From positions 788-64,787 of the forward strand of contig JAVBJZ010000007.1 of NCBI GenBank assembly GCA_031546725.1: 64,000 nt of DNA, written 5' to 3'. Position numbers and translations under genes: made by a program. This document shows positions 49,668-49,967 of this stretch, piece after piece; position 1 is the first letter of the stretch, and every line of letters begins with the position of its first letter. This stretch comes from Azospirillum sp. GTDB lineage: Bacteria > Pseudomonadota > Alphaproteobacteria > Azospirillales > Azospirillaceae. The notes under the pieces are model-generated. The model had not been told where the DNA came from. It saw only the letters and a list, made by a program, of their open reading frames with translations, and did no database searches.

Positions 49668-49967
49668 ATGAAGAAGCTGGTTGCTATCGCCATCGTCGCC
49701 GCCGCCGCTTACGCAGCTCCCGCCTTCGCTCAGGGCATGAGCGGCATGTCCGGCATGCACGGCATGTCCGGCATGGGCGGCATGGGCGGCATGTCCGGCA
49801 TGGGCGGCATGGGCGGCATGTCCGGCATGGGCGGCATGGGCGGCATGGGCGGCATGTCCGGCATGGGCGGCATGGGCGGCATGTCCGGCATGGGCGGCAT
49901 GTCCGGCATGGGCGGCATGTCCGGCATGGGCGGCATGTCCGGCATGGGCGGCATGCAAGGGAAGTAA
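49668..49967 (+). CDS. secreted methionine-rich peptide, (Gly-Met-X)25
   Basis: Signal peptide MKKLVAIAIVAAAAYAAPAFA-Q; 25 GMx triplets (x mostly G/S, one H). Confidence 0.88.
   Translation: MKKLVAIAIVAAAAYAAPAFAQGMSGMSGMHGMSGMGGMGGMSGMGGMGGMSGMGGMGGMGGMSGMGGMGGMSGMGGMSGMGGMSGMGGMSGMGGMQGK
49734..49958 (+). repeat. 9-bp coding tandem repeat x25 (GGCATG-NNN)
   Basis: GGCATGGGC / GGCATGTCC units, no unique spacers. Confidence 0.95.

Follow-up and report, generated by a model that had tools for sequence, protein, structure and literature searches.

In a 64,000-nucleotide stretch of contig JAVBJZ010000007.1 from Azospirillum sp. (the window in what follows), we found a small gene for a predicted secreted protein built of 25 Gly-Met-X tripeptides. 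This gene, here called the GM gene, is the second gene of a sigma-54-driven operon that also encodes a molybdenum (Mo) enzyme of the S-/N-oxide reductase type. We infer that its product, the GM protein, is a periplasmic poly-thioether oxidant sink that is re-reduced by its own Mo sulfoxide reductase, which would be fed by the respiratory chain. To this reading, we give a probability of about 0.5. The operon is laid out in the window as follows.

49243-49258, plus strand: sigma-54 (-24/-12) promoter-like site, TGGCCCGGAACTTGCT.
49295-49546, plus strand: open reading frame (ORF) 83, for a small secreted protein, a divergent or degenerate member of a family of proteins of about 94 amino acids (aa); AGGAG stands 11 nucleotides (nt) before the ATG.
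49668-49967, plus strand: GM gene, an ORF of 99 codons with an ATG start, for the secreted (Gly-Met-X)25 protein.
49668-49730, plus strand: the part of the GM gene that codes for the signal peptide.
49734-49958, plus strand: the repeat array of the GM gene, 25 x 9 bp.
49979-50011, plus strand: GC-rich hairpin of 11 bp, 9 of them G-C pairs, followed by TTTGTTT.
50034-50867, plus strand: periplasmic pentahaem cytochrome c of 277 aa with a Sec signal and 5 CxxCH motifs.
50886-53429, plus strand: catalytic subunit of 847 aa with a Mo-bis-pyranopterin guanine dinucleotide (bis-PGD) centre, exported by twin-arginine translocation (TAT), in a sister clade of DmsA/YnfE.
53438-54121, plus strand: DmsB-like iron-sulfur (Fe-S) subunit with four clusters (TIGR02951), start codon uncertain.
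54121-54837, plus strand: TorD/DmsD-type maturation chaperone (PF02613, NF003442).
55112-57007, plus strand: sensor histidine kinase with haem c, HAMP and a Cys-rich PAS domain.
56947-58350, plus strand: NtrC-type sigma-54-dependent response regulator, start uncertain.

The window was searched for TGGCAC-N5-TTGCW with at most one mismatch, and the only match in the 64 kb was the site at 49243-49258, a count that is in itself not above chance. A first candidate at 49576-49588 falls 2 nt short of the required GG-GC spacing and was discarded in favour of the site at 49243-49258. The hairpin begins 11 nt past the stop codon of the GM gene and separates this gene from the enzyme genes. It is predicted to be an intrinsic-terminator-like or RNA-stabilising element. 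When the leader region and six related loci were scanned with Rfam, no riboswitch for S-adenosylmethionine, molybdenum cofactor or another ligand was found, and the matches were noise and one tRNA. The kinase carries two haem-c motifs (CRECH and CQQCH, both CxxCH) in its periplasmic domain, followed by the HAMP and PAS domains. The PAS domain contains a conserved Cys/His cluster, CYNSSHGASEPCPPTLIACP, which together with the haem-c motifs recurs in the kinases of related loci.

The GM protein of 99 aa reads MKKLVAIAIVAAAAYAAPAFA, cleavage point, then QGMSGMSGMHGM...GMQGK. Its N-terminus has two Lys, a hydrophobic core of 14 residues and then A-F-A, which suggests a Sec-type signal with a predicted cleavage after AFA by the -3/-1 rule. 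If cut there, the mature chain has 78 aa (39 G, 25 M, 10 S, 2 Q, 1 H and 1 K), in which the 25 GM-X tripeptides follow each other without interruption. This corresponds to about 32% Met, 50% Gly and 13% Ser, and the single Lys is the only charged residue (about 1%). In the DNA, 25 units of 9 bp are arranged head-to-tail, 13 of them GGCATGGGC, 9 GGCATGTCC and one each GGCATGAGC, GGCATGCAC and GGCATGCAA. Tandem Repeats Finder reported the array at 49734-49955 with periods of 18 and 27 and a score of 304. A preliminary description of this DNA had proposed a Sec signal and a mature chain of 78 aa with 25 Met and one His, encoded by 25 copies of a 9-bp repeat, and the re-analysis found this to be exact.

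No curated protein family describes the GM protein. The Pfam and NCBIfam scans assigned no family to it, to ORF83 or to the ~94-aa family, and they gave no collagen-like match for the GM protein of the window. Since Gly stands at every third residue, profile searches match collagen-like models and proteins. The relatives of the GM protein reached 14-45 bits against such models, with cut-offs of 325-500 (for example, 44.7 against 325). Collagen-like proteins (Scl/Lcl, PF01391) are rich in Pro and charge, whereas the GM repeat has almost no Pro and shares with them only the Gly periodicity. A phmmer search of 1.84 billion representatives gave 1632 matches, but as those at the top were long Gly-X-Y collagen-like proteins with 33-47% identity, the result is uninformative on the size of the GM family. 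In the literature search, which took in papers on dmsA of Thiodiazotropha and Hyphomicrobium, we found no description of the GM protein or of its link to this enzyme.

The linkage to the enzyme was analysed in related loci, which were collected with the Mo enzyme alone as the query, taking one genome per species. This gave 581 confirmed stretches, of which the best 80 (74-83% identity) were kept. They come from alpha-, beta- and gammaproteobacteria and include Rhodospirillales, Hyphomicrobiales, Rhodobacterales, Azospirillum, Azonexus/Dechloromonas and other Rhodocyclales, Competibacter/Contendobacter, Thiodiazotropha, Sedimenticola, Thiomargarita and others. Among the isolates with the operon are Dechloromonas sp. 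CZR5 (L041), Azospirillum rugosum IMMIB AFH-6 (L080) and Ruixingdingia sedimenti LG-4 (L059). In 75/80 loci, a GM-repeat gene or its trace precedes the enzyme genes in the same orientation, in most of them directly before the cytochrome c gene. More precisely, 73 loci have a GM ORF, two have a frameshifted or cut GM gene (L037, L039), four contigs start too late and one locus is without it. The shared order is sigma-54 promoter, ~94-aa protein, GM protein, hairpin, cytochrome c, DmsA-like subunit, DmsB-like subunit, TorD-like chaperone, kinase and sigma-54 activator. From the cytochrome c to the TorD-like gene, this order is kept in essentially all 80 loci, and the cytochrome c has kept its place in 79. 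The kinase and the regulator lie 3' of the chaperone in most loci and otherwise divergently upstream. In many loci, the first GM run is preceded, at a distance of about 550-600 nt, by a near-perfect TGGCAC-N5-TTGCT. Of the 63 loci analysed for a hairpin after the GM stop codon, most have a strong one; these hairpins are not related in sequence, and several have the form of a textbook terminator, for example AAAGGGGGATTCGTCCCCCTTTTTTT.

Apart from the core operon genes, the recurrent gene clusters of the 80 loci comprise a few others, among them a poly-ferredoxin, a thioredoxin/NHL protein and two small unannotated ones. The poly-ferredoxin of about 350 aa has several 4Fe-4S motifs and lies between the chaperone and the kinase in 34 loci (for example, L005:10352-11419, L004:10747-11889 and L025:9963-11018); the window is without it. 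In 13 gammaproteobacterial loci, a lipoprotein of about 540 aa with thioredoxin-like (AhpC-TSA/Thioredoxin_8) and NHL-repeat parts is encoded nearby (L084:5833-7461, L032:12080-13690 and 11 more).

The complete GM genes of the relatives have 77-435 codons and 13-121 GM dipeptides with a median of 45, which makes the window copy with its 25 a minimal version. Some loci have two GM genes. The preliminary description had pointed out that the array can change its length in whole tripeptides, and this agrees with the wide variation between species, which stays in frame except in L006, L037, L050 and L084. These four have frameshifts in the repeat, and their contig names suggest long-read assemblies. 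The repeat systematically disrupts assemblies and gene calls: 19 of the 80 public contigs begin inside it (L002, L012, L017, L020, L023, L034, L036, L038, L043 and 10 more), and short Logan contigs collapse it. Over 12,142 repeat residues of the relatives, the composition was 40% G, 28% M and 16% S with almost no Pro. The Met and the preceding Gly are constant, and X is S, G, A, N, E, Q, D or K, with D or H being rare. In the reverse search with the GM protein, the context was viewed for seven matches: four lie in this operon (P0016, P0020, P0022, P0024), P0009 and P0010 lie elsewhere and P0026 is at a contig end. GM-repeat genes that stand alone were seen at L081:8001-8345 and L085:8001-8480, one near metH, metF and moeA and the other in a pyrH-frr...rseP-bamA housekeeping cluster.

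All six frames are open across the repeat and, therefore, openness alone cannot pick the coding frame. A start codon and a signal peptide were found only in the GM frame, and the Sec-type signal peptide is present in this frame in 49/49 related loci whose 5' end is intact. Segments without a signal peptide are 19 that are cut by the contig end and one frameshifted piece in L006. In the repeat residues of the relatives, Ser is encoded by TCN 1520 times and by AGY 444 times, and Gly by all four codons, as is expected if selection acts on the protein and not on the DNA repeat. Non-repeat islands are also kept in the GM frame, with ..WVCTQWT.. in 17 genes and ..YFQITPQGQIFFYP.. in 9. We conclude from the start codon and signal peptide, the codon variety and the conserved islands that the GM frame is the coding frame.

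The GM gene is real and transcribed. A metatranscriptome from an invertebrate gut contained an RNA contig of 216 nt that is 100% identical to the window at 49569-49784. The exact GM protein, a version started at Met24 and four ORFs of the other frames were all absent from a collection of 15 billion proteins, whereas three neighbour proteins from the same 72.7-kb NCBI contig were present. This is an indirect sign that the source annotation does not include the GM gene, consistent with the earlier remark that short low-complexity genes are easily dropped. The DmsB-like protein with the start chosen in our analysis was also absent from the collection.

Transcription of the whole operon was analysed with a gill metatranscriptome mapped on L072. 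No RNA was found upstream of the sigma-54 site. An RNA contig of 335 nt without mismatches starts at 3615, about 17 nt past the GC of the -12 element, and covers the ~94-aa gene. The depth was 4365 for the ~94-aa gene, 862 for the unique 5' end of the GM gene, 335-803 for the cytochrome, 195 for dmsA and 187 for dmsB-torD. By this rough measure, the first gene exceeds the enzyme genes about 13-22x and the unique 5' end of the GM gene about 1-4x. In a second run of the same study (X5) and in three runs mapped on a second symbiont locus, individual RNA contigs of 1.3 to 9 kb extend from the 3' end of the GM gene into and through the enzyme genes; contigs of 6.7-9 kb join the GM gene to the enzyme genes. 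These contigs indicate that the GM gene and the enzyme genes form one transcription unit, which is 5'-heavy. In L072, the depth falls across the hairpin, yet read-through contigs exist, and the 5'-heavy profile fits a partial termination or an RNA stabilisation at the hairpin.

The catalytic subunit is 36% identical to E. coli DmsA over the full length. On the DmsA/YnfE model TIGR02166, it scored 622 bits with a cut-off of 777.7, and the DmsB-like subunit scored 196 bits on TIGR02951 with a cut-off of 214.1. Its nearest solved structures were Rhodobacter DorA (2.5e-78), followed by the trimethylamine N-oxide (TMAO) reductase entries 7l5i, which we take to be Haemophilus MtsZ, and TorA. In the HMMER alignment, Ser210 coincides with Ser147, the Mo ligand of DorA; around this position, BLAST aligns E. 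coli DmsA one residue out of register. From the match to Ser147, the enzyme is assigned by sequence to the Ser-type S-/N-oxide reductases and not to the Cys, Asp or selenocysteine types. The FS0 motif (residues ~62-70) reads CAHNCGSRH in the window, C(A/D)HNCGSRH in 81/81 sequences of the clade and CTVNCGSRC in E. coli DmsA. The exchange of the third Cys for His in all 81 sequences is, thus, a signature of the clade.

A membrane anchor of the DmsC/NrfD type was not found in the window or in any related locus by tblastn with E. coli DmsC at E <= 0.01. The cytochrome scored 18.6 bits on PF03264 (NapC/NirT), below the cut-off of 24.1, and its N-terminus resembles a cleavable signal (..ATA|AD). 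Since there is no DmsC-like anchor and the cytochrome is below the NapC/NirT threshold, the module of DmsA-like subunit, DmsB-like subunit and cytochrome looks soluble and periplasmic. The source names of the enzyme are only 'molybdopterin-dependent oxidoreductase' or 'anaerobic DMSO reductase subunit A'. Enzymes of this superfamily are known to act on methionine sulfoxide (MetO) within proteins (PMC7402097): DorA reduces protein-bound as well as free MetO and prefers the peptide QWGAGM(O)QAEED (PMC7402097), which shares the G-M-Q context with the GM protein.

We propose the following mechanism. The GM protein would be abundant and intrinsically flexible, and its useful part would be the 25 exposed Met thioethers flanked by Gly, since a Gly N-terminal to every Met in a flexible chain should leave the Met fully exposed. 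Hypohalous acids and peroxynitrite attack thioethers rapidly, whereas the reaction with peroxide is slower. Periplasmic oxidants such as hypohalous acids, chlorite-derived species, peroxynitrite and peroxide would oxidise the Met of the GM protein to the sulfoxide and so spare essential envelope proteins. The Mo enzyme would then reduce the polymer-bound sulfoxides to Met with electrons delivered via the cytochrome. In this way, the GM protein would serve as a redox buffer that can be recharged and, as a side effect, as an electron sink. The hairpin 3' of the GM gene may keep the sponge in stoichiometric excess over its catalyst. That the operon encodes a reagent together with its regenerator would be the most economical account. 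The oxidation of Met in vivo, its reduction by this enzyme and the nature of the oxidant are the inferred steps of the scheme. Strong circumstantial support comes from the conserved linkage, the constant Met, the S-/N-oxide reductase type of the enzyme, the known substrate of DorA, the precedent of MrpX, the expression and the hairpin. The msrA gene found just downstream of the operon in L084 (15765-16289) and the thioredoxin-like/NHL lipoprotein of the 13 loci point the same way.

The precedent is MrpX of Azospira suillum PS, a secreted Met-rich protein that reactive chlorine species oxidise and that the periplasmic Mo enzyme YedY/MsrP recycles (Melnyk et al. 2015, PMC4436054). In both systems, a small Sec-exported Met-rich protein shares one operon with a TAT-exported periplasmic molybdoenzyme that reduces, or here would reduce, MetO, and the proposed logic is a sacrificial oxidation followed by enzymatic recycling (PMC4436054). 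The parts are different. By its published description, MrpX has 20% Met and 44% charged residues (PMC4436054), whereas the GM protein has 32% Met, 50% Gly and about 1% charged residues in a perfect tripeptide repeat. The enzyme of the MrpX system is MsrP, of the sulfite oxidase family, with MsrQ (YedZ), whereas a DmsAB-type bis-PGD enzyme with a pentahaem cytochrome is found here, and no member of the Oxidored_molyb family was seen among the ORFs scanned. Control is by the extracytoplasmic function sigma/anti-sigma factor pair SigF/NrsF there, with induction by reactive chlorine species, and by a sigma-54 promoter, a kinase and an NtrC-type regulator here. The Met-rich gene comes after the enzyme genes in the MrpX system and before them here. 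Among the features that define the hypochlorite-scavenging MrpX-MsrPQ system, the operon shares only 'secreted and Met-rich'. The proposed system would be an analogue of MrpX-MsrPQ and not a homologue.

Two other groups are close to the enzyme. DmsABC/YnfEFGH are the membrane-bound dimethyl sulfoxide (DMSO) and selenate reductases of enterobacteria. They share with the operon the TAT signal, the N-terminal Fe-S motif, the Ser-type Mo site, the DmsB-like subunit and the DmsD/TorD-like chaperone. In contrast, the operon has a soluble pentahaem cytochrome c instead of a DmsC/NrfD anchor, a His for the third Cys of FS0, family scores below the cut-offs and two extra secreted proteins upstream. The second group is DorCA/TorCA/MtsZY, which contains the nearest structures and is likewise periplasmic, Ser-ligated and fed by a multihaem c-type cytochrome; its member MtsZ reduces free MetO. 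The enzymes of this group are single subunits without an Fe-S domain or a DmsB partner, unlike the module here, and their cytochrome is of the membrane-anchored NapC/NirT type, for which the match here is sub-threshold.

Several observations weigh against the GM protein as a recycled oxidant sink. The enzyme could simply be a respiratory reductase of the DMSO/TMAO type, as the literature treats it. The haem-c/PAS kinase with its sigma-54 activator looks like a control by redox state or anaerobiosis and less like an oxidant sensor such as SigF/NrsF or HprSR. In Candidatus Sedimenticola endophacoides (L066:4639-5858), the only clear GM-less locus of the 80, the ~94-aa gene is directly followed by the cytochrome gene. 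Conversely, two GM genes stand alone outside the operon. Neither msrA nor msrP is generally linked to the operon; when about 85 loci were searched by tblastn for msrA, it was found only in L084. The RNA depths were taken from contigs and are rough, and those within the repeat are inflated by repeated words and were left out of the comparison. Finally, enzymes of the DorA type accept only the S-diastereomer of MetO (PMC7402097), and one enzyme might, therefore, regenerate just half of the sulfoxides.

The first alternative takes the enzyme as an ordinary respiratory reductase of small S-/N-oxides (DMSO, TMAO or similar) that is aided by the GM and ~94-aa proteins without redox cycling of Met. 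The GM protein could then, for example, act as a flexible scaffold or holdase in the manner of the GroEL GGM tails, tether the soluble complex or bind a hydrophobic substrate or product. The enzyme is indeed annotated and discussed as a DMSO reductase: the papers on lucinid and gutless-worm symbionts treat it in this way, and in lucinid symbionts it is reported to be among the highest expressed genes, as an alternative electron sink. The regulators with their likeness to redox or anaerobiosis sensors fit this alternative, GGM repeats occur in chaperonin tails, and GroEL was among the matches of the GM-protein search. The tripeptide is the likeness here, but the GroEL tails are cytosolic, have 4-5 repeats and are part of a chaperonin, unlike the GM protein.

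The ~94-aa protein also bears on this alternative. Its gene lies between the sigma-54 site and the GM gene (for example, L032:3638-3922 and L072:3656-3937), and its motif is YP.SL.FLDNQG.WYTPF..PGM.G.YD(I/L)R.WH with the core ..FLDNQGNWYTPFNRPGMTGPYDLRGWH. All 212 members of the family are named hypothetical, and no Pfam domain was assigned to any of them. In the alignment, ORF83 of the window shares with it only the C-terminal motif WYTP..GM..PYDL. An AlphaFold2 model built from 38 sequences had a mean predicted local distance difference test (pLDDT) of 61 and a predicted template modelling score (pTM) of 0.40, too poor for a fold search, and such poor folding alone might be expected of a subunit that needs a partner. 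However, an accessory role leaves unexplained that the invariant Met is the reduced form of the substrate class of the enzyme. It also leaves unexplained the copy number, which ranges freely from 13 to 121 and would be more natural for a bulk reagent than for a fitted scaffold. In addition, the analysis identified no feature specific to DMSO, and the scores of the clade lie below the curated DmsA/YnfE cut-off. We, therefore, regard this alternative as unlikely.

A second alternative is that the M-x-x-M thioether sites chelate Cu(I) or Ag(I) and buffer periplasmic copper. The predicted secretion of the GM protein and the spacing of its Met at i, i+3 and i+6, which is that of the MxxM 'Mets motif', would suit this function. 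Met-rich Cu(I) segments such as the Mets motifs of Ctr1, CusF, CopA/PcoA and the insert of CueO are likewise periplasmic or extracellular with MxxM spacing. The GM protein differs from them by repeats that are far more numerous and regular and by the near absence of the co-ligands His, Asp and Cys: the window protein has 1 His, and X is rarely D or H in the relatives. In the scanned ORFs of the window, which cover every neighbour between 39.7 and 58.4 kb, no copper, silver or other metal-resistance gene (cop, cus, cue, pco, sil) was seen, and no copper/silver homeostasis family was among those recurrent gene clusters that were identified in the 80 loci. What is strictly conserved as a partner is an enzyme of the sulfoxide reductase type, which a copper buffer does not need. 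The preliminary description had left the choice between a redox sink and a Cu(I)/Ag(I) chelator. The reductase as operon partner, the co-transcription and the precedent are circumstantial support for the redox sink, and with no copper context the chelator has become quite improbable.

A third alternative sees the GM gene as a leader in which the Met-codon-rich ORF and the terminator couple the read-through into an operon that salvages free MetO to the supply of Met-tRNA, with the peptide itself being unimportant. The arrangement of 25 Met codons, a stop codon, a hairpin 11 nt further on and then the enzyme genes would allow this, and the position of the hairpin is conserved. However, classical leader ORFs have 14-30 codons, and attenuation leader peptides are short and not secreted, whereas the GM proteins reach 435 aa, all 49 complete genes encode a signal peptide and the non-repeat islands are conserved. 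The switching between Ser codon families indicates selection at the level of the protein. In a search that was not in-depth, no alternative antiterminator pairing was found and only one hairpin was seen after the stop codon. A mere leader function is, for these reasons, very improbable.

The last alternative, that the repeat is a non-coding GC-rich 9-bp microsatellite open in all frames by chance, has the six open frames and the apparently missing gene call on its side but is effectively refuted by the in-frame start and signal peptide in the window and all 49 complete relatives, the synonymous and Ser-family codon variation, the RNA, and the position and orientation kept across three proteobacterial classes.

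Other genes of the window were noted in passing. Just upstream of the operon and divergent to it lies a gene for a STAND/AAA-type NTPase of 526 aa (nSTAND1, AAA_22, AAA_16; 47071-48651, minus strand), which is not kept in the related loci. Three genes for LuxR/GerE-type regulators, two of them with receiver domains, follow in a row at 43433-46337. About 16 kb from the Mo-enzyme operon, a fused protein of DUF2478 and DUF4213/DUF364 ('putative heavy-metal chelation') is encoded convergently with moeA (31169-33758), and this fusion may be linked to the handling of the Mo cofactor. A protein of 712 aa with C-terminal ankyrin repeats, unusual for a free-living bacterium, is encoded at 17435-19573 on the minus strand and adjoins the gene of an AAA_16 ATPase (16244-17425). 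A cluster like the group-4 membrane-bound NiFe hydrogenases or formate hydrogenlyases extends over 8920-15577 on the plus strand with Hyf/Mrp-like antiporter subunits, an NADHdh-like subunit and a fused 30-kDa/49-kDa large subunit. At 4780-8286 on the minus strand, a protein of 1168 aa consists largely of ALTTAQ repeats (PF20080, 264 bits).

The GM gene has turned out to be of more interest than it first seemed, because it accompanies a widespread enzyme as a conserved and highly transcribed partner, and the role of this enzyme may have to be reconsidered. It falls into two blind spots: assemblers skip or break the gene, and tryptic proteomics would miss its product. With a single C-terminal Lys and no Arg in the mature chain, the GM protein should be left essentially uncut by trypsin and escape standard tryptic proteomics, and the repeat stretches of the relatives without Lys or Arg would be missed likewise. 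The uncharacterised ~94-aa secreted family and the haem-c sensor kinase of the operon also merit study.

If the GM protein is a recycled oxidant sink, the operon would be a second, independently evolved form of the strategy known from MrpX-MsrPQ, with another enzyme family, another electron route and another regulator, and present in at least 75 species-level genomes of three proteobacterial classes. The dmsAB genes of lucinid and other chemosynthetic symbionts, now taken as evidence of DMSO respiration and dimethyl sulfide production, would then have to be re-read. We tentatively suggest that the widespread and highly expressed 'DMSO reductase' of chemosynthetic symbionts, of the glycogen- and phosphate-accumulating bacteria of activated sludge and of many soil and sediment proteobacteria may not primarily serve DMSO respiration. 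The operon would instead encode its own polymeric substrate, a poly(Gly-Met-X) redox buffer wired to the respiratory chain, and form an unrecognised antioxidant or electron-sink system of the cell envelope with parts that are not homologous to MrpX-MsrPQ.

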